From: Spirochaetia bacterium
GTDB taxonomy: Bacteria > Spirochaetota > Spirochaetia > UBA9216
Direction: 5' to 3'
Length of the DNA stretch: 64,000 nucleotides
Assembly: GCA_965140585.1 (NCBI GenBank)
Contig: OZ223270.1
Location: 96,001 to 160,000 of the forward strand
Of this stretch, positions 6,620 through 61,892 are shown in pieces. The translations under genes and the position numbers were made by a program. The notes under the pieces were generated by a model that was not told where the DNA came from, made no database searches, and saw only the letters and a list, made by a program, of their open reading frames with translations. Position 1 is the first letter of the stretch. Each line of letters opens with the position of its first letter.

Positions 6620-7261
6620 TTGGCTAAGATTTACGTCCTGCACCAGACTAACCCCATCCCAGATGACGAATATAACAGGCTCTTAAAGCTTCTTCCGAAA
6701 GAGAAACAGAAGGATATAGGCAAAAAAATCTTCCGCAAGGACCGGGAAATAATCCTTTTAGCGCACTCGCTATTAAGAAAAGTACTTTTTGAAGAATACA
6801 ATCTAAAAGAGTCTGAATACCGCTTTGATACCGGGAAATATGGGAAGCCCTATCTTACTAAAAGGCCTGACATTCATTTCAACATCTCACATACCCACAA
6901 ATGGGCTGCTGTAGCGCTTTCCGATCATGAAATAGGCGTAGATATTGAAAATCACAGGGAAATCGATCCTGAAAGCCTGTCATCGTATTTTCATCCTGAT
7001 GAGAACGCATATATCAGAAGCTTTTCGAAAGACATGCGGATTGATGCATTTTTTAGAATATGGACAATGAAGGAGAGCTATATTAAGGCAATTGGGCTGG
7101 GTCTGCAGCAGCCTCTGGCAGAGTTCAGTACCATTCCAATTGACAGCATTAATGGGTGGAAGTTCAGTCTGTATTCGGTGAACGGTGGGACCAAGCTGGC
7201 GGTGTGCCAGGATGCGAAGGAAGATTCCGGGCTATCTATAGAATTTATTCCACAATATTAA
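6620..7261 (+). CDS. Sfp-type 4'-phosphopantetheinyl transferase
   Basis: YGKP, FNISH, IGVDIE, WTMKESYIKAIG. Confidence 0.93.
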   Translation: MAKIYVLHQTNPIPDDEYNRLLKLLPKEKQKDIGKKIFRKDREIILLAHSLLRKVLFEEYNLKESEYRFDTGKYGKPYLTKRPDIHFNISHTHKWAAVALSDHEIGVDIENHREIDPESLSSYFHPDENAYIRSFSKDMRIDAFFRIWTMKESYIKAIGLGLQQPLAEFSTIPIDSINGWKFSLYSVNGGTKLAVCQDAKEDSGLSIEFIPQY

Positions 7262-27975: not shown

Positions 27976-30489
27976 TTAATTTCTTCTTCGCTGACGATTT
28001 CTTTCAGCTGCACGCTTAATCAACTTTCGCTTATCATTTTCATTATTAATGGTTATAGTTTGCCCCTTAACTCCATCACCTAAAAGAAGTTCTTCTTGCA
28101 ATTGTACTGTAGGATAATTCAACAGATCAATAAGAGCAATTTCATGACTTGAGAGTTTATCAAGCTGTTTTTTCAAATCCGGAAGAAGCTGAGAATGGCC
28201 ACCTAAATCAAAAAAGCTAACATCAAATGGAATCTCATTAGTTTTTAACAACGAGGCCCAAATTAACTGAATTTCACCTATCATTCCCTCCGAAAAATTA
28301 CTATTTTTTGATTTCTTTAAGTCTATCTGTGGTTTAATTAACGATAAAGCTTTCCTGTCAATCTTACCACTAGCAAGCAGAGGAAACTCATTGATAATAA
28401 TCATGTTGCTTGGAATCATATAACCCGGCAATGTTTTTGAGAGTTCTTTCTTTATTTTTGTCACATCACTAACATTTTCAGTTTTTAGATATGCATTAAT
28501 AGTCAAATCACCCGAAGATTTGCCAGGAATCATCACTACTGCGGTTCTTACAGATTCGAGAGCTTCTAGTTGACGCTCTATTTCAGCTAATTCAATCCTA
28601 ATACCATTTATTTTCACCTGTGTATCCTTTCTACCATCATAGAAGATAACTCCCTCTGCTGAGTAAAATCCAAGATCTCCAGTTAGATAGATTCTCTCAA
28701 AACCAAATCCCCAATCTCCTTCGATGAAAACCCTTGAAGTAAGCTCAGAATCATTTAAATAACCTGAAGACACATTTATACCAGAAATAGCTATCTCGCC
28801 TTTCACATAAGGAAGACAAAGTTTTCTGTATTTATCCAGAATATATATTCTAGTGTTGGCAATCGGATAACCTATCGGAATTCTGTTTGCTTCAATATCT
28901 TTTTCATTACATGTCCAAGCAGTAACATCAATAGAAGCTTCAGTCGGTCCATATAGGTTATGGAGTTGTTTATTCCCTACTTTCTCAAAAAACTGCTTTA
29001 GAAGAGGAACTTCTAAAGCTTCTCCAGAACAAATGACAGCAGAAAGATCAGGAAATAATGTATTTGACACATTATTCAGAAACTTCTTTAGTAGCGAAGG
29101 TACAAAGTGTACATATTTTATTTTCCTGTGCCTTATTATTTCTGCCAAATATTCATCATCAAGATACTTAGCCGGTTCAGGAATAAATAAAGAAGCTCCA
29201 GTTAGAAATGGCCAGAATATTTCCCACATTGAAACATCAAATGTAAATGGAACTTTATGTAAAATAGTATCACCAGGTATAAGAGGATAAACTTCTTGCA
29301 TCCAGAAAATTCTATTTACAAGACCATTTCCGTTTATCTCAACCCCTTTTGGATTACCGGTTGATCCACTAGTATATAAAACCGCAAAGGGATCATGTGG
29401 TTGTTTTATTATGTCTACAAGATTTTCATTATCTTCGGTATTAAAGTAATCGATGAAAACTGTATCAAAAGCTTCAAACTCCACACCGCTATTGCGTTTC
29501 TCTATTACAGCCAGACTTGCTCCAGCATTTTTCAGGATAAAACATACCCTAGCAACCGGCCAGTTCGGATCAATAGGAATATAAATATTTCCAGTATTTA
29601 CTATAGAATGGATAAGGATAATACGCTCTATCGAATTATCAATACTTACTGCAATAAATTTACTTGTACCAACTCTGGATATTATAGCGGTAGAATATTT
29701 TTTAACAAGGTGATCAAACTGTTTATAAGAATAACTTCTAGTATTATCACTAATTGCAATGAGATCTGCATAATCAATTCTGGATTGCTCAAGAAGTCTC
29801 CGTAAAGCTATTTTTACAGGATAGTCTCTGATTTTATCGGAATAAAATCGCTTTATGTATTCATCAGACAGTAAGGTAATATTAGAAATATTCTCATCTG
29901 GGTTTTCAAGAATTTTTCCAAGAATTAATTCATAAGAGTCTTTCCATTGCGTTACCTGACTTTGACTGAAAGCATTACTATTAAATTCCCATCGATACCG
30001 ATACTTTCCCTTTTCTATCCAATATGTAAAAAAAAGGTCCATTTGTGCACCGTCTGGCCTGATATCTACCGATATACATTCCACATCTTTAAGATTAAGA
30101 TTGAAAGGATCTTCTTTAGTAAAACCTACCTGAATAAAAAACGGGATTCGAATATCTCTTTGCCCCTTATAGAGCTTTAAAATCTCTAGAAAGGGAGCAT
30201 CTTGATTACGATTAAGAAGAAGCATTTGTTTCCGAATTTTTATATAAAGAGATGCAAAAGTATCTGCATTTTCTATTTGAACTCGAAGAGGCAGAATATT
30301 AACAAAAGGACCATACATATATTCCCGTTCCGGGTCTTTACGGTTGGGAAACGGTATACCGATAAAAAAATCCTCTTGACCACATAACTTGGAAAGTAAT
30401 ACAGCATAACTCGTTAATAGAACAATAAATTCTTGAAACTGGAATTCATCCTCAACCAGCTTTAACTTAGATGCCACCCAATCAGGCAT
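27976..30489 (-). CDS. NRPS, C-terminal part: half C domain-A(Ser)-T
   Basis: GPFVNILPLR; YTSGSTGNPKG; by-eye code DVWHISLIDK; GGHS. Confidence 0.9.
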   Translation of the reverse strand: MPDWVASKLKLVEDEFQFQEFIVLLTSYAVLLSKLCGQEDFFIGIPFPNRKDPEREYMYGPFVNILPLRVQIENADTFASLYIKIRKQMLLLNRNQDAPFLEILKLYKGQRDIRIPFFIQVGFTKEDPFNLNLKDVECISVDIRPDGAQMDLFFTYWIEKGKYRYRWEFNSNAFSQSQVTQWKDSYELILGKILENPDENISNITLLSDEYIKRFYSDKIRDYPVKIALRRLLEQSRIDYADLIAISDNTRSYSYKQFDHLVKKYSTAIISRVGTSKFIAVSIDNSIERIILIHSIVNTGNIYIPIDPNWPVARVCFILKNAGASLAVIEKRNSGVEFEAFDTVFIDYFNTEDNENLVDIIKQPHDPFAVLYTSGSTGNPKGVEINGNGLVNRIFWMQEVYPLIPGDTILHKVPFTFDVSMWEIFWPFLTGASLFIPEPAKYLDDEYLAEIIRHRKIKYVHFVPSLLKKFLNNVSNTLFPDLSAVICSGEALEVPLLKQFFEKVGNKQLHNLYGPTEASIDVTAWTCNEKDIEANRIPIGYPIANTRIYILDKYRKLCLPYVKGEIAISGINVSSGYLNDSELTSRVFIEGDWGFGFERIYLTGDLGFYSAEGVIFYDGRKDTQVKINGIRIELAEIERQLEALESVRTAVVMIPGKSSGDLTINAYLKTENVSDVTKIKKELSKTLPGYMIPSNMIIINEFPLLASGKIDRKALSLIKPQIDLKKSKNSNFSEGMIGEIQLIWASLLKTNEIPFDVSFFDLGGHSQLLPDLKKQLDKLSSHEIALIDLLNYPTVQLQEELLLGDGVKGQTITINNENDKRKLIKRAAERNRQRRRN

Positions 30490-31118
30490 ATCTGCAAATA
30501 GAGTTTCTCCATCACCAGTAAATACACCTCTTTCAGATTTTCAGAAGGCAGAAGCAGAGGGGAGGGTTCATTTTTTATTTGGTTTTTCCAAAAATCAATA
30601 TTAAAAATACATAAGGAATTCGCTTTATAATCTGTTAATTCAAATGAAAGTTTGTTAGTATTATACAACTCAGAAATGGCTCTGGATAATAAATGTTTAG
30701 AGTGAAGATCTATTAAAATATGATGTTGAATAATGCAAAAATAGTTTAAATTATCATCAAGATTAATTAATCTTGCTTCCAAAGGGAGTTCAGTATTTTC
30801 TAAAAAAAATTTCTGGTTAGATAATTTCTGAATATATTCTTTAGCCTCTGAATCTGAGCTCATTGAAACTACTTTAAGTTCATTATCTGGTAAGGCTCCA
30901 AAAACAGCTTGGAATACAGTATTCCAAGACTTAAATAGCCTATCCTGATCCAATTTATTAGATATTCTACAACATAGCACAATATTATACGCAATATCTG
31001 TTTTATACAGCGCGTTGATAGTTTTAAAATGCATTTGATTAATGGTAATATTATTATTCATTTTACTTTTAACCCTTATTATAAATTGTGAAATAACATA
31101 ACTCGGGGAACATATCAA
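30462..31118 (-). pseudogene. N-terminal half of the same NRPS condensation domain, split by a 1-nt frameshift (real or sequencing error)
   Basis: QHHILID (HHxxxD), FWKNQI, LLLPS; the other frame continues RGVFTGDGETLFADMPDW from about 30530. Confidence 0.75.
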
Positions 31119-32767: not shown

Positions 32768-34858
32768 TTATTTAATTACATTTAACCACGATATATGTGG
32801 TAATGTTTCACCATGTCTATAATGCCATACACCGTCTGAATAAATAAACCCATTATCTCGAAAAACATTTCTACAAGGCATGTTACGCTCTAACTCTATA
32901 ATCTCACCTTTGATAGGTATAGAATCGCAAGCCATTTTTAGTTCAGTAAGCATAGCAGTTTCAATTTTGTATCCAAAAACACGACATGATAATACAAAAT
33001 AATCAATTGAATAAAATTCTTTATATTTAGTTGCTATAATACAACTTATTATACCAGCATAACCAAATTTATCATCATACTCACCTATAAGCATTATTGC
33101 TTCTTTTGAATTATACATTTCTCGTATTTCACTTTGTGATATCTTAACTCCGCGTGTATTAAATTGATTAGTCTTACTAATCAACTCTTCAACTCTTTTT
33201 AATTCTTTTAATTCAGGTCTTCGTATCTTTAGATTAATTTCCAATTTTTTAAATCTTTCTTCCATAGAAAAATCATCTTGACTAGAGGATTTGGATAAAA
33301 AATGTTCCCTTTTTGTCCGTTCCTGATACTGCCGTGTTTTATCAACTGAATTATTCGCATCCAGCATCTCATACCAGAGATTAAAACGCTCCCAAGTAAC
33401 CTCATCGTTTGGGTCAAGACAAAGCATTTCTGGATATATTTCATTAGCCATAGCTCTTTCATCACTTCTGTCATCAATAAAAACATAATCTTTTGTAGTA
33501 ATATTTAAATCTTCAACCATATTTTTAAAACCTTCTACTTTTGGCTGCCAACTAATCTGTTGATAAACAAAATCAGATTCTGATAAGCATCCGCCATTCC
33601 ATTTAACATTTTCGGGATCATTTTTTGAATTCACCGATAGAATAATCCCTCTACTTTTCAATTTAAGGAGTATATTTTGTCTCTCTGTATAATGCACCAC
33701 ATCACCCTCACCAATAACACCAGCCCAAAGAGTCTCATCTAAATCACATACCACCATTTTTTTGCCTTTTAAATAGATTGCTACAAAAATAATATCAATA
33801 TAATGATATGCAATAATTCTAGAAAAATATGCTGGGTGACTAAGTTTAGAGTAGTGTAGATAACGTCCAAGCTTAAACGAGGAGTATCCAGAAGACAACC
33901 TTAGTTCATCAACGATATATATATGTTTGAACGATTGCTCATTAAAATGTTTAATAGAATCTGATATCCAGGTATTTATTTTTACTTTTAAGTACTTGCT
34001 TACTTTTCCTAATAAGGTATTGTTTATGAATCTCTTTAAAGGGTTGTCGCCTCTAATTATATTAGCAGTATTATGAACAAAAATAGCACAATCAAATGTA
34101 TCGGCTAATAAACCAATAATCTTCTTGATATCAATCAAAGTAGTCGCTAGAATTGATTCTATTTCTTTTTTCTTAAATCTTAAAGAGCTAAGTTTTAAAA
34201 ATTGATAATAGTTAGGATCAAAAGAGTATGTTAATGGACTATAAAATACAAAATCAAATTTTTTATTTGATAATTCACTTAAAGAATTAAGTAATTCAAA
34301 ATGATTCTTTGATGTAGCATATGTGGGCCTTATAGTAACCCCTAGATCTTTTAGCTCAGGAACAGCGAAGGACACTATATCCATAAAAACACAGTCACCA
34401 ATAAATAAAACATCAATAACTTTTTCTGTCTTAGACATTATAACTGAATAAATTTCTTCGATAATTTCAAAAAATTTTTCATATTCTTTTTCATTAAGTT
34501 GATTTTTAGCTAATTTTTTAAAAATTAAAATGTCTTTTTCTAAATTATTTTTTTTATTAATTTCATAAATACTTTCATCTACAGATTTGTCATAAATAAG
34601 TTTGAGTTTTTCACCCACATACAGTGATATGTATACAGGATCCAAACTTTCAAAGTATTTTTTTAGATATATAGGGAATATCATATATTCGCGTTCGACA
34701 TACTCTTCAATCACATCATTACTAACCGCCTTTGCATGCTGCTCATTCCAGCGTGGTAGAACATTGGCATTTTGCGCGAGAAGATTTGCAATTTCTGTTT
34801 TATTATGTTGAACAAATCGTTTTATGCGAGTTGAATGTTTCATTTTTATTTTTTCCAT
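32768..34858 (-). CDS. FkbH-like HAD-IIIC protein (glyceryl-ACP forming)
   Basis: DLDETLWAG, SKND, VFIDD, KTNQFN, DKFG, LSCRVFG. Confidence 0.9.
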   Translation of the reverse strand: MEKIKMKHSTRIKRFVQHNKTEIANLLAQNANVLPRWNEQHAKAVSNDVIEEYVEREYMIFPIYLKKYFESLDPVYISLYVGEKLKLIYDKSVDESIYEINKKNNLEKDILIFKKLAKNQLNEKEYEKFFEIIEEIYSVIMSKTEKVIDVLFIGDCVFMDIVSFAVPELKDLGVTIRPTYATSKNHFELLNSLSELSNKKFDFVFYSPLTYSFDPNYYQFLKLSSLRFKKKEIESILATTLIDIKKIIGLLADTFDCAIFVHNTANIIRGDNPLKRFINNTLLGKVSKYLKVKINTWISDSIKHFNEQSFKHIYIVDELRLSSGYSSFKLGRYLHYSKLSHPAYFSRIIAYHYIDIIFVAIYLKGKKMVVCDLDETLWAGVIGEGDVVHYTERQNILLKLKSRGIILSVNSKNDPENVKWNGGCLSESDFVYQQISWQPKVEGFKNMVEDLNITTKDYVFIDDRSDERAMANEIYPEMLCLDPNDEVTWERFNLWYEMLDANNSVDKTRQYQERTKREHFLSKSSSQDDFSMEERFKKLEINLKIRRPELKELKRVEELISKTNQFNTRGVKISQSEIREMYNSKEAIMLIGEYDDKFGYAGIISCIIATKYKEFYSIDYFVLSCRVFGYKIETAMLTELKMACDSIPIKGEIIELERNMPCRNVFRDNGFIYSDGVWHYRHGETLPHISWLNVIK

Positions 34859-37312: not shown

Positions 37313-39088
37313 TTAGTATATTACCTTTATCCCACTAGGCTTTACACTCTGTCGACCACTCCAAAAATTATATTCTATAGCCCCAATATCCGGTAGACTA
37401 TCTCGTAATTTTCCTAAAGCGTCTACAGGAAAATAATTAAGAGGCAAACGATCTACTAAAGGAGAAGTATCACTTTTAGGCATTCCAATATATTTTATAT
37501 CATCAGTAGAAGTGATAATTTCAGGATCCCCTATAGATTGAGAAACATCAGGATCAGAGTCTGGCGATTTAGCTCTATAGTGAGGGCGTTTATCACTACC
37601 AATCCCCTCTCCAGTAACTGCGGAATACTGAAAATGATTATTAAGAAATACATTCCCTTCACTATTTCCAGGCAGAGTCCAATCAGGATCTACATAATCA
37701 GATTCACTAAAATCAAGCCACTCATCAAACAAACAACCAATCATAGAGGAATTAGTCCATCCGCTACCCATATAATAAAACCAACCACCAAGGAAAGTAC
37801 AGTTCCACAAAAGAACATGATCCCAGTTCCCTACCATCCCTCCAGCATCAAGAATTATCTTTTGAGTCGAATTGTCAAAGTCATAACGTCCAGGACCGCG
37901 CATCTCAATCAGAACATTTACAAATGCAATATTAGTATTACTAGTATGGTCAATATTATTATCTATATAAAAGCCTTGATAATGGCAATTTGTCGCATGA
38001 AGTCCATAGATGATAAAGTTATCTTTATCATATCTCCACATTTGGTATACATCAGCATGGTTGTATGTGTCTTCTGGATCAATGTCATCAACTGTGCAGT
38101 TGATAACACACTCAACATTCTGAAAAGCATCATTTGCTATGTGCTCAATATCACATCCACGGCAAAAATATGCTTCACGAAAAGCCATATCGACATTATA
38201 GACATAGCAGTCTGTGAACCAGCAAGGGTAATCACTTCTAGAAACACCGTCACGTCTTATTGGGCTACTATCTGTAACTGTCCGATTAAAACCGATTATA
38301 TCTACATTATCACACCATAGGTTTGAAGGACTATGCCATGTAATTCTATTTTTTGTTACTTTGTTTGAAATAGTCAAATCCTTAAAACACCCCCAAGTGG
38401 TACCATGGGCAGTACCACCAGTATCAATTATAACATTCTCTTTAGACGCTCCAGGTGCTTTTGTAAAATAAATCCACTCATCAACAGTTAATGTCGAATA
38501 AGTATAGGAAGTACCTAAAGTCCACGCCCCCTCTTCAAGATATATTTTAGCTCCATCACATTTTGATTCATTTGACAATGCCTGAACAGCATTTATTGCT
38601 GCTAAAATTGTTTCAAACGGACGCTCGGGGTTCCCAACTAACCCGGTAGAATCATTACCATTATGATTATCACACCAGACTTCATATGCCTCTAATGTCC
38701 CAGCACCATCTACTATCAATATTAAGGGGTCTAATTCTTTTACACCACCATCCTTTCCTGTAACAGTAGCGACAATCGAAATTTTCCCACTACCAGTAAA
38801 ATCTGACGGATCTAAAGTAATAAAATATTCCCAAACATCTGTTCTTGTATTCAATTCCATTGAAAATACTTTTTGTGTTGATGGACCCGCATATCCTTGC
38901 CCACTCACATCGAAGGAAACATCTAAAACTCCAGCTTTGGAAAAGGCAACAACTCCAGCGTCAAAGTTTTTTTCGATACGTTGATGCGGAACAACATCCC
39001 ATCGCGCTATTGGAATTACTGCAAAAATAAACATCGGTAAGATGAATAGATTCAAAAATATAAAAATTGATTTCCTTGATATAGCCAT
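37313..39088 (-). CDS. Secreted parallel beta-helix (pectin lyase-like) protein
   Basis: Signal peptide; GND..G...PFETI; NDAF, HADVYQ; C-terminal D..G..R...PDIGAIEY. Confidence 0.65.
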   Translation of the reverse strand: MAISRKSIFIFLNLFILPMFIFAVIPIARWDVVPHQRIEKNFDAGVVAFSKAGVLDVSFDVSGQGYAGPSTQKVFSMELNTRTDVWEYFITLDPSDFTGSGKISIVATVTGKDGGVKELDPLILIVDGAGTLEAYEVWCDNHNGNDSTGLVGNPERPFETILAAINAVQALSNESKCDGAKIYLEEGAWTLGTSYTYSTLTVDEWIYFTKAPGASKENVIIDTGGTAHGTTWGCFKDLTISNKVTKNRITWHSPSNLWCDNVDIIGFNRTVTDSSPIRRDGVSRSDYPCWFTDCYVYNVDMAFREAYFCRGCDIEHIANDAFQNVECVINCTVDDIDPEDTYNHADVYQMWRYDKDNFIIYGLHATNCHYQGFYIDNNIDHTSNTNIAFVNVLIEMRGPGRYDFDNSTQKIILDAGGMVGNWDHVLLWNCTFLGGWFYYMGSGWTNSSMIGCLFDEWLDFSESDYVDPDWTLPGNSEGNVFLNNHFQYSAVTGEGIGSDKRPHYRAKSPDSDPDVSQSIGDPEIITSTDDIKYIGMPKSDTSPLVDRLPLNYFPVDALGKLRDSLPDIGAIEYNFWSGRQSVKPSGIKVIY

Positions 39089-39989: not shown

Positions 39990-41129
39990 CTATATAGTAA
40001 AGGTACAAATAACTTTATCTATTTTACATTTAGAATAAATCAACAACCTATCTTCAAGATATTTAATTCTTAGTAATTCAATAACTGAACAAACTGTAAA
40101 AACTATTACGATACTAAATACCGCCAACAAAGGGTAGAAATGGGAATTATACTGACTTATTACAGATAAAATTTTATTCCAAATTAATGCTCGTAATATT
40201 TCTGAATCATGTATTAAATATACGCCAAACGTAGTGGCTGAGAACAAATTTATTACTCTATTATTTTCAATCTGAATGCTTTTAAAAATTAAAAATATAG
40301 AAACAGCTATAATTGGCTTAAACACACTCTCAGCTACTAAATTTGTCAGCTCATGAATCACACTCCATGTTGCATTAAACTCTGTAAATCTTACATTAAA
40401 AAATAACTGTAAACCTAAACAAATCCAGAGAATAAGACTTACAACAAATGGTACCATTGTTGACTTTAGGTCACGTCCATAATAACGTAAATACCCCCCT
40501 AAAGAGTAGTAAAAAACTGCTTTTTGTAAAATAAAAAATGAAGTATTAAGCTTAGCCGCAAAAGTATACCAAAAAACCCAAAGAACTAAAATTATAAAAA
40601 TAAATCCTTTCCTATTCAGTCTACATAATAATGTGTTTAATAAAGGTGTTATTAAATACAATGTAAAATAAGCAGTAACAAACCACCAGGAACCGCCTAA
40701 TACAGGCATTGTACTACGAAGAATATATCGGGCGGTAAATCCTGAAACCAGCCCATTATCACCTAAATATTCAGGATAATTATATATTTTTAAAATATAT
40801 GTAAGAAAGAATATTACTAAGGAAAACACTGAGTAATATAAAACCTGTAACAGCATTCTTAATATTTTGATTGATTTTACATTACTTTTTATTTGGAAGT
40901 ACCCAGTAAGAATAAAAAAGATTGCTACACCGATCTCACCTCCTGGAATCAGAAATGATGTGAATAACACTTTAAAATCAGAACCTTCAAGCCATAATCC
41001 ACAAGTGGGCATCCCACCCCAATGAGATTGTTTAATCCCATGAACAGCATAATGACAAGCTACTATACACAACATTGAAAAGATTCTTAACAATTCAAGA
41101 TTTGAGTTACGTTTAAAACTGTTACTCAT
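39990..41129 (-). CDS. Acyltransferase-3 family membrane O-acyltransferase
   Basis: RNSNLELLRI..M..IV..H, V.IFFILTGYF, WWFVTAY, FGVYLIH. Confidence 0.88.
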   Translation of the reverse strand: MSNSFKRNSNLELLRIFSMLCIVACHYAVHGIKQSHWGGMPTCGLWLEGSDFKVLFTSFLIPGGEIGVAIFFILTGYFQIKSNVKSIKILRMLLQVLYYSVFSLVIFFLTYILKIYNYPEYLGDNGLVSGFTARYILRSTMPVLGGSWWFVTAYFTLYLITPLLNTLLCRLNRKGFIFIILVLWVFWYTFAAKLNTSFFILQKAVFYYSLGGYLRYYGRDLKSTMVPFVVSLILWICLGLQLFFNVRFTEFNATWSVIHELTNLVAESVFKPIIAVSIFLIFKSIQIENNRVINLFSATTFGVYLIHDSEILRALIWNKILSVISQYNSHFYPLLAVFSIVIVFTVCSVIELLRIKYLEDRLLIYSKCKIDKVICTFTI

Positions 41130-41151: not shown

Positions 41152-43956
41152 CTATTTAACTAATACTTTCTTTTTTCGGTTTTTATATTTATAAACAAAA
41201 CGTCCAGAAACTTCCATAAAAACGGTCCATAATCGATAAGAAACCACCCCACTAATCAACCCAATCAATACCTGAACGGGCCAAATTGACGGCATTCCTA
41301 AATTTGATAATTCTGAGAGTACAAAAGAATGAACGATGTAAATAAACAATGAAGCAGAAGCTATCTCGAGGATGATTGTTTTTAGATTCTTAGGAAACCG
41401 GATTCTGTCTATCCATATAATCAATAACATGACAAGATAAAACGATATAGGCAAGTAACGATATGTCACCAATCCGGGAATATCCAATCTTGTTAATACA
41501 AACGGAATAAATAGACTAACTGTTAGAAAAATCCGCTCCTTCGTACATGTGGTGCTAGAGATCGCTACACCAAATGCAATTGGCCAAAGCCAGGGAAATG
41601 GTCCGATACTTTCACTTCCAAGACTGCCATTCCAAAATCCAGTTAAGCTCTGTAATACTCCAAGGACAATAGCCCCTAGAGATACTGTCATATCTAGCTT
41701 GAATTGACTATCTTGGTTAGGAACTCTCTGTGTTTTACCTTTTTTCCAGGAATATAGTACAATCAAAGTAACGACGGAAAGGATTAATATATTCGCTGTC
41801 AAAATATCAAGAAACCAATACCCCCAACGGCCATTTCCTGGTTTTTGAAACATTGTGTTAAGAAGAAAAAAGTCAGGTAGCCAAAAACGATGATTTTGAA
41901 TAGAGCATAATGCATTCCATAAAAATACAGGAAATCCATAGCTAAAAATAAATCTAAAAATTCCGTTAAGATTTCCTTTCTGGTAAATTGTAGGACGTAA
42001 AAACTTCCCAAAACTGAGCCCTGATAATACAAATAGAACCGAGGCATCTGGCAGATGATTAAAACCTAAATGACCCATTATAACAAATGTGATAGCAATA
42101 GCACGAAACAAGCTTGTCATATCAATATAAGTCCAGACTTTTGATTTTTGTTTAGTCTTTTTTTTACCGAGCAACACATTAAGGGGCATTATTTCCCACC
42201 TATCCGGCAAATAGCCTATATGTTTTTCAATGAATAATGAAACCCTAATGTACGATAATGAATCACCTCCTAAAGCAACAAACGATGACTCTATAGTATC
42301 TATATGCCTGCCTAATACTGATTCTATCTTTTTTATAATGACTATATCTGATGGATCAATATCCTCAAGGCGATATAAATCTTCAGAAGGCTTACTACAA
42401 CTTGAATCAATATCCATTAAGGCTAGAGCCTTACGATCCGTTTTGCCATTTAATGTAAGAGGATATTCATCCACCTGCATAAAGAGATTTGGAATCATAT
42501 AAGTAGGCAAGATATTAGATAAGTCTTTCTTTATCGCTTCAACATTTATATCTCTACCATCTTTAGCAATAATATATGCAGCAAGCTGCTTGTTACATTT
42601 GGAGAGCTCCTTAGCCACAACCACAGCGTTATGAATTGAAGGATTATTCATTAATGCATATTCAATATCTCCTAGCTCAATCCTATAGCCCCTTATCTTG
42701 ACTTGAAAATCAGATCTTCCAATATACTCAATATTTCCATCTTCATGATAACGGCAAACATCTCCGGTTTTATACAACCGGTCGGTATCAAGCCCCCATT
42801 CAGAAGGACATGTTAGAAACCTTTCAGAGGTTAACTCATCCCTGTTTAAGTATCCTAAAGACAGCCCGATACCGCCGATATATAATTCACCTGTCTCGCC
42901 AATAGTTACCGGATTAAGCTGATCATCAAGTATTATCATTACTGTATTATCTATTGGCTTCCCAATAAGAGGTTGCTGGTTACACCCTCTCAACCTGAAA
43001 GCTGAAGACCATACTGTTGTTTCTGTAGGACCATAAAAGTTCCAGACTTCATCACAATTTTCAGTAAGTTTATTAGCAATATCAGCTGACACGGCTTCTC
43101 CACCGCATACAATTTTTTTCAAAGAAGAATTTTTCCAACCATAGTCAAAAAACATTTGGAAAGATGTAGAGGTAGCCTGCATCATAGTAACCGAATTCTT
43201 ATCAATATATTCGATAAGCCGCCCGATATCTCTGGCCATTTTGGTAGTCGCCAATACTATTGTGGCTCCAACGATAAAAGATAGATAAAGTTCAGGAACA
43301 GACATATCAAATGAGATAGTTGCAAGAGCAAGGAATTTATCGTCTTCAGTAATTCCAGGCTTCTTCTTCATTGATAATAAAAGGTTTAGAAGAGCTCTGT
43401 GTTGAATCTGAACGCCTTTTGGGGTCCCGGTTGATCCTGAAGTGTATATTATATAAGCTAAAAAATCACCCTCGATCTTTATTGCAGGCGGTAAAGCCTC
43501 TTCTTTATCTATTTGCGCCTTCTCATCTTCGATAACCATAACATCTACATCAGCATTATCGAAAAGTTTTTCAACTAATGCTTTTTGAGATATTATAGAA
43601 GCAAGTCCAGAGTCATCAACCATATAAGAAAGTCTGGATTTTGGAAAATGAGGATCCATAGGAATATAACACGCACCTGTTTTTAAAATACCTAGCAGAA
43701 CAGGTAACAGATCAATATTTCTTTCCAAGCATACACCAACAATAGTTCCATTTTTAATATCTTTTTTAATAAAGTAGTTTGCATATTTGTTGGAAAGAAT
43801 ATCAAGTTCTCTATATGAAATTTTATGGTCTTCAAAGATTACTGCAGTATTATTATTTTCTTTACTTACATCTTTAAAAATTTCAAGGAAATTTGAGTGC
43901 TTCCCTAAATCCACAGTAGTATTATTTATTTCTTTTATTATGCTCTCCAGCATCAC
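41152..43956 (-). CDS. Adenylation domain + carrier domain + acyltransferase-3-like membrane domain fusion
   Basis: YTSGSTGTPKG, YGPTE, NGKTDR; LGGDSLSY; FRAIAI.FVIMGH, LFVLSG, YWFL, SLFIYIVH with many TM segments. Confidence 0.85.
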   Translation of the reverse strand: MMLESIIKEINNTTVDLGKHSNFLEIFKDVSKENNNTAVIFEDHKISYRELDILSNKYANYFIKKDIKNGTIVGVCLERNIDLLPVLLGILKTGACYIPMDPHFPKSRLSYMVDDSGLASIISQKALVEKLFDNADVDVMVIEDEKAQIDKEEALPPAIKIEGDFLAYIIYTSGSTGTPKGVQIQHRALLNLLLSMKKKPGITEDDKFLALATISFDMSVPELYLSFIVGATIVLATTKMARDIGRLIEYIDKNSVTMMQATSTSFQMFFDYGWKNSSLKKIVCGGEAVSADIANKLTENCDEVWNFYGPTETTVWSSAFRLRGCNQQPLIGKPIDNTVMIILDDQLNPVTIGETGELYIGGIGLSLGYLNRDELTSERFLTCPSEWGLDTDRLYKTGDVCRYHEDGNIEYIGRSDFQVKIRGYRIELGDIEYALMNNPSIHNAVVVAKELSKCNKQLAAYIIAKDGRDINVEAIKKDLSNILPTYMIPNLFMQVDEYPLTLNGKTDRKALALMDIDSSCSKPSEDLYRLEDIDPSDIVIIKKIESVLGRHIDTIESSFVALGGDSLSYIRVSLFIEKHIGYLPDRWEIMPLNVLLGKKKTKQKSKVWTYIDMTSLFRAIAITFVIMGHLGFNHLPDASVLFVLSGLSFGKFLRPTIYQKGNLNGIFRFIFSYGFPVFLWNALCSIQNHRFWLPDFFLLNTMFQKPGNGRWGYWFLDILTANILILSVVTLIVLYSWKKGKTQRVPNQDSQFKLDMTVSLGAIVLGVLQSLTGFWNGSLGSESIGPFPWLWPIAFGVAISSTTCTKERIFLTVSLFIPFVLTRLDIPGLVTYRYLPISFYLVMLLIIWIDRIRFPKNLKTIILEIASASLFIYIVHSFVLSELSNLGMPSIWPVQVLIGLISGVVSYRLWTVFMEVSGRFVYKYKNRKKKVLVK

Positions 43957-44012: not shown

Positions 44013-45221
44013 TTACTCGTTAAAAAGCATTTCTAGAACAGCTCCTTCCTTAACTGTATCATGCTTCAACATTGTCAATTCTCTACCTTTATTTGCCATA
44101 GTCTCCAGCTCATCCAAAGGGGCTTCGAGGGCTTCAAGCATAGCATCTACAAGCTTCTCACTGTTTCCGGAAGGAACTAACCATCCATTTTCTTTGTGCA
44201 CAACCAGCTCGGGAATGCCAGCTATGTATGTTGAAATTACTGGTCGTCCGACAGCAAAAGACTCCATGATAACCATTGGAAGCCCTTCTGCAAAACTAGG
44301 CAAGACCATTGCCCTGCTTTCTATAAGAAATTCTTTTACTTTATCTTCAGATACATACCCTGAGATCTCTACATTATCTGCTATATTAAAAGCCTTTATC
44401 TTTCTCTCAATAGTCGATCGTAATTCTCCATCTCCAACAAAAATCAACTTTGCATCAGGAGCTTTAGCTAACAGTTCATGAAAAGCATCTAACAACACCA
44501 ACTGCCCCTTCTGCGGAGCTAAACGACCAATACAGACAAATGTCTTGCTGTCTACCATAGGTTCTTTCCTTGAAAAAAAGTCTTCGCCTACAGTACACCC
44601 CACAGTATGAATCTTATGCCAGTCTTCCAGCCTGCACCACCTTTTTAGTTGAGCTGAACAAAAATCTGTTATTGCAACAGTAAATTTAGAATCCTCAATC
44701 TTACCAGACAAGTCATATCCTAAAGGAGAATCAAACTCATCAGGCCCATGAACTGTAAAACTATAGCTGGGCCCGCCAAGATGCCTTATAATTCTGGTAA
44801 TAGCAGCAGTGTTTCTTCCAAAGTGCGAATGAATATGTTTAACCTGTTTTTGTTCAGCATGGTTAAGAAAAGCTACAGCTTCTAACAAGTAAACAAAATG
44901 CCTCAGTAAAGACTTCTCACTGTATTTATGCATCGACAGAATAAGTCGTATTGATTTAGAGAATTTGGATGGCCTTACCAATAACCAGATAATTGAAGAA
45001 AAAATCTTTCTAAAGATTGAATCTTTGAAGAAATAGAACGTTTTTTCTTCTTCTTTAAAGTCAATATCATTTACCAATGGCGCATCAGATCTCCTCAATG
45101 CCATTCGTACAACTTCATGTCCTCGTCTTTCTATTTCCAATAACTCTCTTCGTATAAAAGTATGACTGACGGATGGATATTTAGTTGTTAAATATGCAAT
45201 CTTTACACGTTCCCCTAACAT
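44013..45221 (-). CDS. GT4 glycosyltransferase
   Basis: YPSVSHTFIRRE, FTVHGPDEFD, GRL..KG, PSFAEGLPMVIME. Confidence 0.93.
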   Translation of the reverse strand: MLGERVKIAYLTTKYPSVSHTFIRRELLEIERRGHEVVRMALRRSDAPLVNDIDFKEEEKTFYFFKDSIFRKIFSSIIWLLVRPSKFSKSIRLILSMHKYSEKSLLRHFVYLLEAVAFLNHAEQKQVKHIHSHFGRNTAAITRIIRHLGGPSYSFTVHGPDEFDSPLGYDLSGKIEDSKFTVAITDFCSAQLKRWCRLEDWHKIHTVGCTVGEDFFSRKEPMVDSKTFVCIGRLAPQKGQLVLLDAFHELLAKAPDAKLIFVGDGELRSTIERKIKAFNIADNVEISGYVSEDKVKEFLIESRAMVLPSFAEGLPMVIMESFAVGRPVISTYIAGIPELVVHKENGWLVPSGNSEKLVDAMLEALEAPLDELETMANKGRELTMLKHDTVKEGAVLEMLFNE

Positions 45222-57904: not shown

Positions 57905-58216
57905 ATGATACAAGCAAATGTAAACCCAGGAGCATGTGGATTAAAAACAGTAATCATAGCCGAATCTTTAGACATGATAACCGCAACTGTGACAATATCA
58001 TCAGATTGCCCGGCAGTTATTAAATACGCAAAGCAGTTAAATACTATTGAGGCAATAAAAGAAGTCTTTGCTCCTTTCGGCACCTCAATTGTGTTCAAAG
58101 CCGCAGAAACCACCATCTCACACCCGGCATGCCCTGTTCCTACAGCAGTTCTAAAAGCAGTTGAAGCGGCATGTTCTCTGGCGCTACCTATCGATGTGGA
58201 GATAAAATTTTCTTAA
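57905..58216 (+). CDS. Small Cys-containing protein (DUF6951-like)
   Basis: PGACG, SDCP, HPACPVP.AVLKAVE...LALP pattern. Confidence 0.65.
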   Translation: MIQANVNPGACGLKTVIIAESLDMITATVTISSDCPAVIKYAKQLNTIEAIKEVFAPFGTSIVFKAAETTISHPACPVPTAVLKAVEAACSLALPIDVEIKFS

Positions 58217-58363: not shown

Positions 58364-59782
58364 GTGGTCTTCTCGTCATTAAAATTCATTTTTTTTCTAC
58401 TTATTGTTCTTATTTCATTCTTCATTCTTGGAAAGTTCAAGAAATACATTTTAGCAAAGCTATTATTAGTTATTTCGTCGCTTTTCTTCTATGCTCAAGG
58501 TAGTTATTCATTCTTTCCTTTCTTCCTGGCGTCAATTTTTGGAAATTACTTCATAGGAACAGCGCTTATCCGTATAAAACAAAATTATCTTCTACGAAAA
58601 GTTGTTATTATATTAGGAATTCTTGCGAACTGTGCATTACTTGGATATTATAAATATGTTGATTTTTTCATTGAAAATATTAACTTTCTCTTTACCTGCG
58701 GAATTCCTTATAGAAACATAATATTACCGATTGGAATTTCATTCTTTACTTTTCAACTGATCGCTTATTTAGTTGATTCATATCGTGGTTTTACAAATGA
58801 TTATAATATTTTAGATTATTTACTTTTTATAACATTTTTTCCTCAGTTGATTGTAGGCCCTATAGTACATCACTCCGAAATGGTTCCACAGTTTGAAACA
58901 ATAAATACTCATCAATTAGACAAATTCAATCTATCAAAAGGGTTATTTCTATTTTCAATAGGTTTAGCAAAGAAAGTTCTAATAGCAGATAATCTAACAA
59001 ATGATGCACAGACGTTCTTTATTAATTATTTTAATCCTACTATATATGAGGCATGGTATCATTCAATACAGTATACTATCTCATACTATTTTGATTTATC
59101 CGGTTATGCAGATATGGCAATAGGTATTGGCTGGATGTTCAATATTAAAATACCCACAAATTTTAACTCTCCTTACAAAGCAAGAGATTTTCAGGAATAC
59201 TGGCGAAGATGGCACATAACTCTCTCTAGATTTTTGGGAGATTACATCTTTAAATCTTATTATAAGAAAGGAAATAGAATTAGGAATTATTATTGGGCCA
59301 CCATGCTAACTTTTTTTGTATCGGGTTTTTGGCATGGTTCCGGCTGGACTTTTGTTATATGGGGACTCATAAATGGACTTCTGGTTTGTCTTGCAGCTTA
59401 TACCAACAGAAAGAATATGAAAGTTCCTATTATCCCTGCATTTATTCTGACGCAGATTGCTGTTGTCCTATTGAGAACTTTATTTGTAGCCAATGACTTT
59501 ACAACAGCAATAGATATATATACGGCTATGTTTAATTTCCATTCTCTTGGAAGCAATTTTATGGAATTTAAATCTAATCTACTATTATTTTTAATCAAAA
59601 ATAGAAGGGTGGGTTATTACCTTTTTATAGGAGTTATTATTGCCTGGTTTTTACCTAATTCAAATAGATTAACCGAACGTTTCGATGGTTCGTTTAAGTA
59701 TGCCATCTTTTCAGGAAGTCTGCTTGCCATCTCCTTTACACAAATTAGCAAAGTGGCTGATTTCTTATATTTCCAGTTTTAG
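58364..59782 (+). CDS. MBOAT O-acyltransferase (AlgI/DltB-like)
   Basis: LPIGISFFTFQ, FFPQLIVGPI, DLSGYADMA, WRRWHITLS, GFWHG, FLYFQF. Confidence 0.93.
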   Translation: MVFSSLKFIFFLLIVLISFFILGKFKKYILAKLLLVISSLFFYAQGSYSFFPFFLASIFGNYFIGTALIRIKQNYLLRKVVIILGILANCALLGYYKYVDFFIENINFLFTCGIPYRNIILPIGISFFTFQLIAYLVDSYRGFTNDYNILDYLLFITFFPQLIVGPIVHHSEMVPQFETINTHQLDKFNLSKGLFLFSIGLAKKVLIADNLTNDAQTFFINYFNPTIYEAWYHSIQYTISYYFDLSGYADMAIGIGWMFNIKIPTNFNSPYKARDFQEYWRRWHITLSRFLGDYIFKSYYKKGNRIRNYYWATMLTFFVSGFWHGSGWTFVIWGLINGLLVCLAAYTNRKNMKVPIIPAFILTQIAVVLLRTLFVANDFTTAIDIYTAMFNFHSLGSNFMEFKSNLLLFLIKNRRVGYYLFIGVIIAWFLPNSNRLTERFDGSFKYAIFSGSLLAISFTQISKVADFLYFQF

Positions 59783-59791
59783 AGGCCAAAA

Positions 59792-60733
59792 GTGAAAAAT
59801 AGAAAATTTTTTATTAGTTTAATTGCCACTTTTACTAGTCTCTTTATTTTAGTCAATTTCATGGTAGCACTACGTTTACCGATTTACAAAATAAAAGATG
59901 AGGGCAAATTTATCAATATACCTAATAATATCCTAATTTCTAATGTAGGAGGCAGCCATGGATTAAGAGGAATTGATTGGTCTGTAATTGATGATGATAG
60001 ATGTTTTAACTTTACACTATCAGCCCAAACTCTTTCTTACAGTCTTCGTGTAGTGGAATGTTTTAAAGAAAACTTTTCCTCTGGAGGGGTTCTTGTTATT
60101 AATGTTGGATTTGGATATCTAAGCTATGATGAAAAACCACAAATAAATTTCCCTTCTAAAAATAAGCGTTACTATTCATTTCTTGCTCCAGAATACATCA
60201 AAGATTATAAATTACTTGATGCTATAAAATATAAATTTCCAGTTTTTTATTACAGTTATGACATAATCAATCTCATTAGACAACTCATCTTTACCGAACC
60301 AGAATTAGCGTCTGAGGTTGGTAAACGCAAAATCGATCTAAGCAAAGTTGATTTGCAGGCTAAAATGGCGATAGAGGAACACATAATCCAATATAATAAA
60401 CAGTTTAACCAGAGGGAAATTGAGGCTCTTTATGGTATTATTAATTTTTGTAAAGAGAATAACATTACACCAGTAATAATCACCTTCCCGCATTTAGATG
60501 AATATCTTGAACTGATTCCAATAGATTTTAAAAAGGAATTCTATAAAAAGATTGAGTATATTTCCAATGAAATTAGTGTGAATTACTATGACTATTCTAA
60601 CGATCAACGATTTAGAAGATATGATTTATATTTAAATTCCGATCATCTAAATAATTATGGTGCTGAAGTTTTCACAAAAATCATTATTGAGGAAATTCCT
60701 GAAATAAAGAAAACCTTAGACGTCTTAGATTGA
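59792..60733 (+). CDS. SGNH-like partner of the MBOAT (AlgJ/DltD-like)
   Basis: N-terminal TM, GGSH, NSDHLN..GA; directly follows the MBOAT gene. Confidence 0.75.
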   Translation: MKNRKFFISLIATFTSLFILVNFMVALRLPIYKIKDEGKFINIPNNILISNVGGSHGLRGIDWSVIDDDRCFNFTLSAQTLSYSLRVVECFKENFSSGGVLVINVGFGYLSYDEKPQINFPSKNKRYYSFLAPEYIKDYKLLDAIKYKFPVFYYSYDIINLIRQLIFTEPELASEVGKRKIDLSKVDLQAKMAIEEHIIQYNKQFNQREIEALYGIINFCKENNITPVIITFPHLDEYLELIPIDFKKEFYKKIEYISNEISVNYYDYSNDQRFRRYDLYLNSDHLNNYGAEVFTKIIIEEIPEIKKTLDVLD

Positions 60734-60842: not shown

Positions 60843-61892
60843 TTATAACCATTTCTTATAAAATAAATTAATCTTATTTAAAGCAATAGCAGACAGGATT
60901 GAAAAAAATAATACGGAAATATAATAAGTCATACTATTTATATCAAAAAAGGACTTTCGAAGTAATATCAAAAACAAATTATGTATCAAATAAAGCTCTA
61001 AACTAATTTGCCCTAAAAAAACACTTATCTTATTTGAAAATCTTAACTTTAGAAAAATTAATACACAAGTAAATATAAAAAATATTGACGTTAGTAATTC
61101 TAAAAAGAATTTTATCAATTCATTGCATGATAAAAACTTTATAGCCAAATTCTTTGCTAAAAACAATGAAATAAGTAAAGAAAATGAAATCAGTAACTTA
61201 ATAAAATAAAATTTCTTCAAAGATTCTGATATTTCTTTTTTATAAGCAAAAAGCACACCAAGATTAAATGTTATACAGGAATTATACCAAAATCTCCCTT
61301 TATCAAACAAAATACAAACTATTATATATATAAATGTCGTTAAACAAGATAATAAAAATATCAGTTTCTCTTTGTTAGTAATTTTTACGGTTATAAAGAA
61401 TAGTACATAAAAATATATGACTGCATGAATATACCAAGCCTGTATGTTTACTAGAATAATTCCAGAAATCTTTTCAATTGCCCCAAAAACACTGAAATTT
61501 CCTTTTTCGAGAATTAGAAAGTATAACAAATTTATTATAAAAAACGGTATTATTAATCCAAATATTCTTTTTCTAAAAAAGTTTTTTAAATAATCTTTTT
61601 TGTATTTATAGCTGTACATAACTCCGTATCCAGAGAAAAAAAAGAAAACACTTACACATAAATAGCCAGTTATCAAAAAAGGATATAATAAAATTTCATT
61701 TTGAAGGACTTGGCTCAAATGATGATAAATTACAACTAAAACGCAAATACCTCTTATTGAAACTGTAGAGTCAAACGACAGATAGTCCTCGTAAAAAGAG
61801 TTTCCTTTTATTACCTTGCAATTCCAAAAGACTACTACTAATAGTAGTAAAACTGTAATAAACATTATTAACAACCTCACAAGAAAAAGCAA
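60843..61892 (-). CDS. Acyltransferase-3 family protein
   Basis: IRGICVLVVIYHH, VSVFFFFSGYG, AWYI, ISLELYLIH. Confidence 0.85.
   Translation of the reverse strand: MLFLVRLLIMFITVLLLLVVVFWNCKVIKGNSFYEDYLSFDSTVSIRGICVLVVIYHHLSQVLQNEILLYPFLITGYLCVSVFFFFSGYGVMYSYKYKKDYLKNFFRKRIFGLIIPFFIINLLYFLILEKGNFSVFGAIEKISGIILVNIQAWYIHAVIYFYVLFFITVKITNKEKLIFLLSCLTTFIYIIVCILFDKGRFWYNSCITFNLGVLFAYKKEISESLKKFYFIKLLISFSLLISLFLAKNLAIKFLSCNELIKFFLELLTSIFFIFTCVLIFLKLRFSNKISVFLGQISLELYLIHNLFLILLRKSFFDINSMTYYISVLFFSILSAIALNKINLFYKKWL

Follow-up and report, generated by a model that had tools for sequence, protein, structure and literature searches.

We have analyzed a window of 64,000 nucleotides (64 kb) from a Spirochaetia bacterium (contig OZ223270.1, positions 96,001 to 160,000) and, within it, one gene whose 934-residue product joins an adenylation (A) domain of the nonribosomal peptide synthetase (NRPS) type, a carrier or thiolation (T) domain and a ten-helix membrane domain of the acyltransferase-3 (AT3) type, in that order. 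We put at slightly better than even, about 0.55, the probability that this A-T-AT3 protein is a self-contained, Dlt-like, carrier-dependent transmembrane aminoacyl transferase that moves a glycine-like residue onto a flipped polysaccharide repeat unit or polymer. The three domains, their order, the topology signals and the wider family are seen directly in profile matches, structural models and conserved residues; we infer that the pantetheine arm acts as donor within the membrane pore, which amino acid and which acceptor are used, and at which face of the membrane transfer would occur.

Three domains in a single reading frame

The gene is a single open reading frame (ORF) on the minus strand (Table 1), with the end points that an earlier note, made from the sequence alone, had given it. 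A reading of the same interval on the plus strand was rejected, since stop codons occur throughout. The frame opens with GTG; an alternative start, ATG at 43953, would give 933 residues and is the start of the database copy P0002 (933 aa). The gene is separated by 56 nt from a family 4 glycosyltransferase (GT4) gene upstream and by 22 nt from a stand-alone AT3 gene downstream. Between positions 38500 and 46500 a promoter scan returned 29 promoter-like sites against 34.2 expected from shuffles, and a terminator scan of the same region found no terminator-like site between these three genes. Rfam gave no match in the whole 64-kb window. The protein was modelled with AlphaFold2 (AF2) at full length (pLDDT 87.1, pTM 0.60, the A-T linker 517-529 being the sole poor stretch) and as residues 531-934 (pLDDT 93.1, pTM 0.91).

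The A domain is complete, as the earlier note had stated. Residues 29-370 match PF00501 AMP-binding with an E-value of 6.7e-80 and residues 431-505 match PF13193 AMP-binding_C with an E-value of 1.3e-7 (Pfam), while a TIGR01733 score of 406.7 bits, above the cutoff of 317.4, assigns the domain to the NRPS adenylation family (NCBIfam). It contains the core motifs YTSGSTGTPKG, NFYGPTE, YKTGD, GRSDFQVKIRGYRIE and NGKTDR, and the equivalents of Asp235 and Lys517 are present as D217 and K505. The best relatives in the PDB are NRPS A or A-T modules (LgrA, E 1e-183), and the A-T alignments extend to residues 572-584, i.e., into the carrier domain. LgrA was rejected as a guide to specificity; its two A domains score alike (306 and 309 bits) and for that reason it is uninformative about the substrate. 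The ten-residue specificity code is DMPQVGFVWK (D217, M218, P221, Q260, V283, G285, F307, V315, W316 and K505), located from the core motifs with anchors in GrsA numbering. The same ten residues had been picked out by eye in the earlier note, and its description of the code as glycine-like but atypical holds. The A domain is 43% identical to that of the window's own hybrid of NRPS and polyketide synthase (PKS) at 20187-25721, which has the code DILQLGMIWK; this code, which we take to be the canonical one for glycine, is also that of P0009 and P0011, the nearest full-length relatives. As far as the sequence indicates, the substrate is most likely a small alpha-amino acid, with glycine the foremost candidate.

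The carrier domain is a small helical bundle in the AF2 models (helices 535-548, 566-580 and 592-596). It contains the sequence LGGDS at 562-566, with GGDS at 563-566. In both models helix 566-580 begins with Ser566, to which phosphopantetheine is predicted to be attached, and this is where the carrier motif places it. Conservation here and below refers to 149 relatives listed from an exhaustive search with residues 600-934 alone. The pair D565-S566 is kept in all 127 of the relatives aligned at this point, and 24 of the 45 relatives scanned with Pfam match PF00550 at E<=1e-3. The short LGGDS carrier described in the earlier note is thus borne out by the helix start and by the conservation of its Asp-Ser pair. 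A lysine-rich linker, KKKTKQKSK (598-606), follows the carrier and precedes transmembrane (TM) helix 1. The Sfp-type 4'-phosphopantetheinyl transferase encoded at 6620-7261 may activate the window's carrier domains, presumably including that of the A-T-AT3 protein.

The membrane domain has ten helices in both AF2 models (613-629, 638-660, 664-688, 714-739, 748-772, 787-800, 805-823, 837-848, 856-885 and 892-933). R618 and H629 are exactly 11 residues apart in the first of these and form the R-X10-H motif that, in a study of OafB, is described as absolutely conserved in TM helix 1 and as defining AT3 (PMC9833829). Further hallmarks are FVLSG at 642-646, YWF at 713-715 and YIVH at 873-876, so all the AT3 features listed in the earlier note (R...H in the first TM helix, F..SG, YWF and Y..H) are present. 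Among aligned relatives, G646 of the F..SG motif is conserved in 141/141, W714 in 143/146, G796 in 147/147 and Y873 in 142/148; position 717, an aspartate in this protein, is acidic in 118 of 146.

The protein's own match to the Acyl_transf_3 profile, PF01757, covers profile positions 6-319 of 326 and is weak, and for this reason the domain was examined by further routes. PF01757 is matched at E<=1e-3 by 31 of the 45 scanned relatives, and 18 of the 45 reach the cutoff of 31 bits, nearly all of them over the full profile. All 30 nearest clusters in the ESM Atlas carry PF01757 (top score 0.93, with 193 of 256 features shared). In a Foldseek comparison with the PDB, ranks 1-9 are taken by GWT1 and HGSNAT, with probabilities of 0.91-0.98 and identities of 10-14%; no bacterial AT3 structure appeared among the matches. 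A PDB sequence search with the C-terminal domain gave a single irrelevant match (E 1.9), and one with the family profile gave two carrier-protein matches (E 1.4 and 2.2) and nothing else. On balance we regard the C-terminal domain as a divergent but genuine AT3-type domain. The earlier note had asked whether this domain might not be AT3-like after all; the relatives above the cutoff, the conservation of the motifs, the Atlas neighbours and the weak fold matches speak in favour of an AT3 nature.

The loops that follow helix 2 (K651, R654, K661) and helix 4 (KKGKTQR) are rich in lysine and arginine when read from the sequence, and those after helix 1 (LGFNHLPD) and helix 5 contain neither residue. 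Because of these basic loops and of the KKKTKQKSK linker, the A and T domains are predicted to be cytoplasmic, with helix 1 ending on the outer side at His629. A cytoplasmic A domain accords with the requirement for ATP. R618 falls within the inner half of the same helix, whereas W714 and D717 are found where helix 4 begins on the outer side. The positions described for OafB are alike: Arg14 lies in a mid-membrane basic region and His25 is periplasmic, beside the thioester of a membrane-spanning acetyl-coenzyme A (acetyl-CoA) (PMC9833829); by analogy with His25, His629 is presumed to be the catalytic residue.

The same residues bear on an alternative in which transfer takes place at the cytoplasmic face, onto a repeat unit that is linked to undecaprenyl diphosphate (Und-PP) and has not yet been flipped, and in which the AT3 domain mainly positions the enzyme. 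There is precedent in the PglI and TmaT AT3 systems, which are currently modelled with cytoplasmic acylation according to a review of AT3 proteins (PMC9558356), and no SGNH partner is fused or adjacent to the protein. The positions of His629, W714 and D717 at the outer ends of their helices, however, match the extracytoplasmic cluster of OafB, and we consider inner-face transfer quite improbable.

Proposed route of transfer

We propose the following sequence of events for outward transfer. The cytoplasmic A domain would make the aminoacyl-AMP of a small alpha-amino acid, most likely glycyl-AMP, and the amino acid would be loaded as a thioester onto the phosphopantetheine arm of Ser566. The carrier would dock at the cytoplasmic mouth of the ten-helix AT3 domain, and its arm, which is chemically the same as the pantetheine part of acyl-CoA, would enter the central cavity in place of that molecule. 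The thioester would reach His629 where helix 1 ends on the outer side, and the aminoacyl group would be passed, on the periplasmic side, to a hydroxyl of the Und-PP-linked repeat unit or of the growing polymer made by the Wzx-type cluster in which the gene lies. In OafB the RXXR motif lies on TM helix 3, at its cytoplasmic face, and its second arginine helps to bind the 3'-phosphate of CoA (PMC9833829). The fusion to an A-T loader and the apparent loss of one such CoA-phosphate-binding arginine would argue for a carrier-bound donor, and we interpret the weakened RXXR as fitting a donor that has no 3'-phospho-ADP to hold. The anatomy, with cytoplasmic A and T domains, His629 outside and an Sfp-type transferase encoded in the window, also fits the proposal of the earlier note that the protein is a fused DltABC analogue. 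Cargo from the other carriers might be accepted as well, as that note suggested, though this is conjectural.

Several results weigh against this proposal. The carrier domain scores 16.6 bits with PF00550 PP-binding (E 0.0098), below the gathering cutoff of 20.8, and the membrane domain scores 15.6 bits with PF01757 (E 0.0085), below that of 31. The specificity code agrees with the presumed glycine code at only five of ten positions and has an unusual proline at position 239. The helix-3 RXXR of AT3 proteins appears not to be kept: R668 is present, but residue 672 is a serine. Foldseek returned no PDB matches at E<=1e-3 (best E 9.8e-3, TM 0.33-0.39), and a BFVD fold search gave one unnamed 637-aa match (probability 1.0, TMq 0.46), the rest being noise. 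The family profile, compared by hhalign with the neighbouring canonical AT3 protein as a shallow template, gave a probability of 0.6%, and against three canonical AT3 proteins, again shallow templates, it gave a local match only (48 columns, probability 48%, E 1.8e-4). Glycosyltransferase genes are found within 10 kb at only two (L005 and L009) of the nine related loci described below. Finally, a 2022 review of AT3 proteins favours acyl-CoA over an acyl carrier protein (ACP) as the donor (PMC9558356). In the family as a whole, the start of helix 3 has the form [RK]-x3-[RK]-x3-P, with R or K at the second basic position in 110/144 relatives and P676 in 138/144; the equivalence of this motif to RXXR is one of position and not of structural alignment.

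The PF01757 score below the cutoff and the weak fold matches would also be expected if the C-terminal domain were a mere membrane anchor and the A-T portion fed a soluble partner, for example the neighbouring condensation (C) domain. Conservation makes this highly improbable: R618 is kept in 140/140 relatives and H629 in 137/140, and neither G646 nor G796 varies in any relative aligned, which would be unexpected for an anchor.

Relatives and genomic setting

In the exhaustive search, residues 600-934 matched 294 clusters (at 50% identity) at E<=1e-3, 78 at E<=1e-10 and 28 at E<=1e-30, mostly loader-carrier-AT3 fusions. A word-indexed search with residues 585-934 had returned only the protein itself (1 of 3721 candidates). 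The apparent uniqueness of the C-terminal domain is overturned by the exhaustive search, and the earlier result must reflect a limit of sensitivity, given the 294 clusters found. The protein was treated as a one-off in the earlier note; it is instead a member of a large uncharacterised family. An A domain is detectable by BLAST in 95 of the 149 listed relatives, the carrier region is matched by 121 and a GGDS-like motif is found in 113, and we take the carrier-AT3 junction to be the family hallmark. Twelve relatives of at least 520 aa lack a BLAST match to the A domain; in seven of them the AMP-binding domain is divergent, three consist of a carrier-AT3 piece, and PKS modules occur in the other two, acyltransferase (AT)-ACP in P0231 and ketosynthase (KS)-AT in P0193. 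The 45 relatives scanned with Pfam comprise 31 with an A domain, one PKS and 13 short proteins with T-AT3 or AT3 only, of which some are possibly fragments. Eight of the 31 also have a C domain, and one of these has a sulfotransferase domain as well.

The protein looks modular, in that its A domain and its T-AT3 part have different nearest relatives. Overall it is 49% identical to P0009 and 39% to P0011, and the A domain is closest to these two. The T-AT3 part is closest to P0122 (47%) and P0123 (42%), with P0009 and P0011 at only 23% and 21%; the code of P0123 differs from that of the protein studied here. Among 82 A domains, three of them from the window, the commonest code is DPRHFGFQAK (38, in relatives P0122-P0270), followed by DVRHFALLAK (7), SYSATAMARK (6) and DILQLGMIWK (4). 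The SYSATAMARK domains probably take a substrate other than an alpha-amino acid, because the Asp that binds the alpha-amino group is missing; this code and its variants form a second code group, all lacking that Asp. Many relatives are about 1110-1185 aa long (for example P0123 and the protein encoded at L002 7805-11212) and begin with about 200 additional residues ahead of the A domain, for which there was no Pfam match at the thresholds used.

The gene described here lies in a minus-strand polysaccharide cluster that extends from about 52.9 kb down to 19.2 kb (Pfam, NCBIfam). It is preceded, in order, by genes for a PilZ protein, a priming sugar transferase, a family 2 glycosyltransferase (GT2), Alg14-like and Alg13-like proteins and a Wzx-type flippase, and then by an eight-helix protein without a family match, possibly the polymerase, and by GT2 and GT4 genes. 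It is followed by genes for the stand-alone AT3 protein, a hexapeptide acetyltransferase, a secreted 591-aa protein and GT2 and GT4 enzymes, and then by genes for an FkbH-like protein, a GT2, a second hexapeptide transferase, a C-A-T NRPS, an AsnB-like amidotransferase, an A-T-KS-AT-T-TE hybrid (TE, thioesterase) and a methyltransferase. Chain-length and export genes are found just upstream of the cluster on the plus strand. The C-A-T NRPS (27976-31118) has the code DVWHISLIDK, presumably for serine, and no release domain; its C domain is split by a frameshift, either real or a sequencing error. The GC fraction falls from about 0.43 at the start of the window to 0.30-0.35 within the cluster. 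The organism is an uncultured spirochaete: the best named matches to its Gnd protein come from Spirochaeta and from metagenome-assembled genomes (MAGs) of Spirochaetales, at about 62% identity, and it also encodes a protein resembling Leptospira Lsa23.

Table 1. Coordinates of the A-T-AT3 gene, its domains and other features of the 64-kb window
Feature	Position	Strand	Basis or remark
Whole A-T-AT3 ORF	41152..43956	minus	934 aa from GTG 43956; stop codon 41152-41154
Adenylation domain	42421..43872	minus	residues 29-512; PF00501, PF13193, TIGR01733
Carrier (thiolation) domain	42157..42354	minus	residues 535-600; PF00550 below cutoff, helices, relatives
Ser566 codon, predicted phosphopantetheine attachment site (GGDS)	42259..42261	minus	motif, helix start, conservation
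AT3-type transmembrane acyltransferase domain	41155..42135	minus	residues 608-934; ten TM helices
Arg618 codon, R of R-X10-H in TM helix 1	42103..42105	minus	R in 140/140 relatives
His629 codon, H of R-X10-H, outer end of TM helix 1	42070..42072	minus	H in 137/140 relatives
Stand-alone canonical AT3 acyltransferase	39990..41129	minus	PF01757 E 4.8e-20; same operon-like block
GT4 glycosyltransferase, 56 nt upstream of the A-T-AT3 gene	44013..45221	minus	PF00534 E 4.4e-39; EpsE-like (NCBIfam)
Secreted 591-aa protein, N-terminal signal or anchor	37313-39088	minus	between acetyltransferase and GT2; no Pfam/NCBIfam match
696-aa FkbH-domain protein, glyceryl-carrier loader	32768-34858	minus	TIGR01686 187 bits, residues 366-674; N-terminal half unassigned; among glycosyltransferase genes
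C-A-T NRPS, C domain split over two ORFs	30462-31118, 27976-30489	minus	ORFs overlap by 28 nt
Hybrid A-T-KS-AT-T-TE enzyme, 1844 aa	20187-25721	minus	A-domain code DILQLGMIWK
Sfp-type 4'-phosphopantetheinyl transferase	6620..7261	plus	PF01648 E 3.3e-19, PF22624; AusB/HetI-like (NCBIfam)
Asparagine-synthase-like gene, 436 aa, truncated-looking	7258-8568		adjoins the phosphopantetheinyl transferase gene
IS1182 transposase fragment, 204 aa	56566-57180	plus	first 189 of 488 model positions; cluster edge
DUF6951	57905-58216		second envelope-acylation set
MBOAT (membrane-bound O-acyltransferase), DltB-like (NCBIfam)	58364-59782		second envelope-acylation set
DltD-like membrane-anchored protein	59792-60733		PF04914 E 1.5e-4, below cutoff
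Third AT3	60843-61892	opposite to MBOAT/DltD-like set	91.9 bits

The NRPS and PKS genes of the cluster raise the alternative that a longer assembly line has the AT3 domain as its release domain. The C-A-T gene, the A-T-KS-AT-T-TE hybrid and the FkbH-like loader would then help to build an acyl- or peptidyl-aminoacyl chain on Ser566, and this chain would be moved onto the glycan. The cluster does contain a C-A-T NRPS without a release domain, a hybrid NRPS-PKS and an FkbH-like protein, and among the relatives a C domain is present in cis in eight of the 45 scanned and PKS modules in P0193 and P0231. However, the A-T-AT3 protein itself has no C domain, and the conserved T-AT3 junction points to its own A domain as the source of the cargo, delivered in cis. 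Moreover, the separate NRPS has its C domain divided between two overlapping ORFs, and the hybrid enzyme has a thioesterase of its own. We therefore regard release of an assembly-line product as unlikely for this protein.

In a more general form the idea deserves tentative mention. The carrier-AT3 unit could be a general and so far unrecognised transmembrane release module for thiotemplate enzymes, by which a phosphopantetheine-held chain is passed to an extracytoplasmic acceptor, bypassing CoA. The variants A-T-AT3, X-A-T-AT3, C-A-T-AT3, sulfotransferase-C-A-T-AT3 and KS-AT-ACP-AT3 point in this direction, and the cargo could range from amino acids, whether single, N-acylated or peptidyl, to carboxylic acids and polyketides.

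A search of reference genomes with a five-sequence alignment gave nine related loci, in Proteobacteria and one Spartobacteria MAG, and none from the genome of the window itself. At the seven loci without glycosyltransferase genes within 10 kb, three of which span less than 11 kb of DNA, the neighbours encode RND efflux systems, tRNA synthetases, luciferase-like monooxygenases, an amidase and a class IV aminotransferase. A glycan acceptor is thus not a family-wide rule, since only two of the nine loci, a small sample, are near glycosyltransferase genes. The same seven loci favour the alternative that the chemistry is as proposed and the acceptor is a membrane lipid, lipopolysaccharide, peptidoglycan, a periplasmic glucan, a small molecule or, if the protein is an exporter, water. 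For the protein studied here such an acceptor seems unlikely: its gene is tightly inside a polysaccharide cluster, near a second AT3 gene and a hexapeptide acetyltransferase gene, and the characterised AT3 proteins acylate carbohydrates, as stated in the review (PMC9558356).

Some of these loci have features of their own. L005 (7808-14227), from a betaproteobacterial MAG, has tandem genes of the A-T-AT3 type, for proteins of 1146 aa and 930 aa, which adjoin Wzy_C, GT2, GT4 and hexapeptide transferase genes; the second copy has no PF01757 match at E<=1e-5. At L007 (6966-10744) a gene for a class IV (D-amino-acid/branched-chain) aminotransferase lies just upstream of the homologue. Luciferase-like monooxygenase genes are found directly downstream of the L001 homologue and about 2.5 kb upstream of that of L006.

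Comparison with known systems and implications

The preferred reading, outward aminoacyl transfer from a carrier, has its closest counterpart in the Dlt system (DltA, DltC, the MBOAT protein DltB, DltD and DltX), in which a ligase loads a carrier and a polytopic acyltransferase passes the amino acid outward to an envelope polymer. The protein differs in being a single polypeptide, in having a membrane part of the AT3 type where Dlt has an MBOAT, and in having a glycine-like code and not that of a D-alanine ligase. Identity with DltA was rejected, as DltA models give the A domain 273-301 bits, below their equivalog cutoffs (TIGR01734, 273.3 against 559.85; NF003417, 301.2 against 476). No DltD or DltX partner adjoins the gene; an MBOAT and DltD-like pair is found 14 kb away (58364-60733). 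The AlmE/AlmF/AlmG system of Vibrio cholerae is also similar, in that a DltA-like ligase and a carrier provide glycine to an envelope glycolipid, lipid A; the Alm system consists of three separate proteins, and the likeness is one of published description. AlmG acylates lipid A at the cytoplasmic face and belongs to the LpxL/lysophospholipid acyltransferase type, not to AT3.

A single A-T module followed by a membrane-bound catalytic region in place of a thioesterase is also found in membrane NRPSs of the Pls/PosA type, epsilon-poly-L-lysine synthetase and its relatives. In Pls, however, three soluble C-like domains alternate with six TM helices, and the enzyme polymerises its amino acid. A Pls-type terminal region was rejected for the present protein, the models of which have ten contiguous helices and no soluble inserts; TIGR02353 (Pls/PosA) was not among the best 25 of 104 NCBIfam matches.

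Among the molecules decorated by AT3 proteins are O-antigens, capsules, peptidoglycan and antibiotics. With the AT3 O-acyltransferases (OafA/OafB, Oac, WbaK, Lag-1 and OatA) the protein shares ten TM helices, R-X10-H, F..SG, an extracytoplasmic cluster of tryptophan and acidic residues and a location in a surface-polysaccharide locus. These enzymes use acetyl- or acyl-CoA and stand alone or carry a C-terminal SGNH domain, whereas this protein has an N-terminal A-T loader, no SGNH domain and apparently no second RXXR arginine. HGSNAT and GWT1, the best matches among solved structures, bind acyl-CoA within a pore through the membrane, and the acceptor that they acylate is on the opposite side. 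They differ in being eukaryotic members of other subfamilies with CoA as donor and no carrier domain. HGSNAT uses a histidine and is grouped with AT3 in a single TmAT superfamily (PMC11357348). By motif, and probably by fold, the protein belongs with AT3, but it would depart from AT3 in the donor that defines that group.

The forms of AT3 protein distinguished in the 2022 review are stand-alone AT3, AT3-SGNH and AT3-racemase (PMC9558356), and by a term count the words 'AMP', 'non-ribosomal' and 'aminoacyl' are absent from it. A full-text literature search, subscription journals and supplements aside, found no paper that describes the loader-carrier-AT3 architecture.

If the proposed function is correct, the AT3 pore is able to accept a protein-bound pantetheine arm, and AT3 chemistry reaches beyond acyl groups borne by CoA, such as acetyl and succinyl, to amino acids and other non-CoA acids. 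One protein would then do what Gram-positive bacteria need four or five Dlt proteins to do. A general role of the carrier-AT3 unit in release, if true, would link the polysaccharide cluster of this window to the NRPS and PKS genes embedded in it. The family would be a source of candidates for the enzymes that place amino-acid esters on surface glycans, and of a compact means to decorate polysaccharides.

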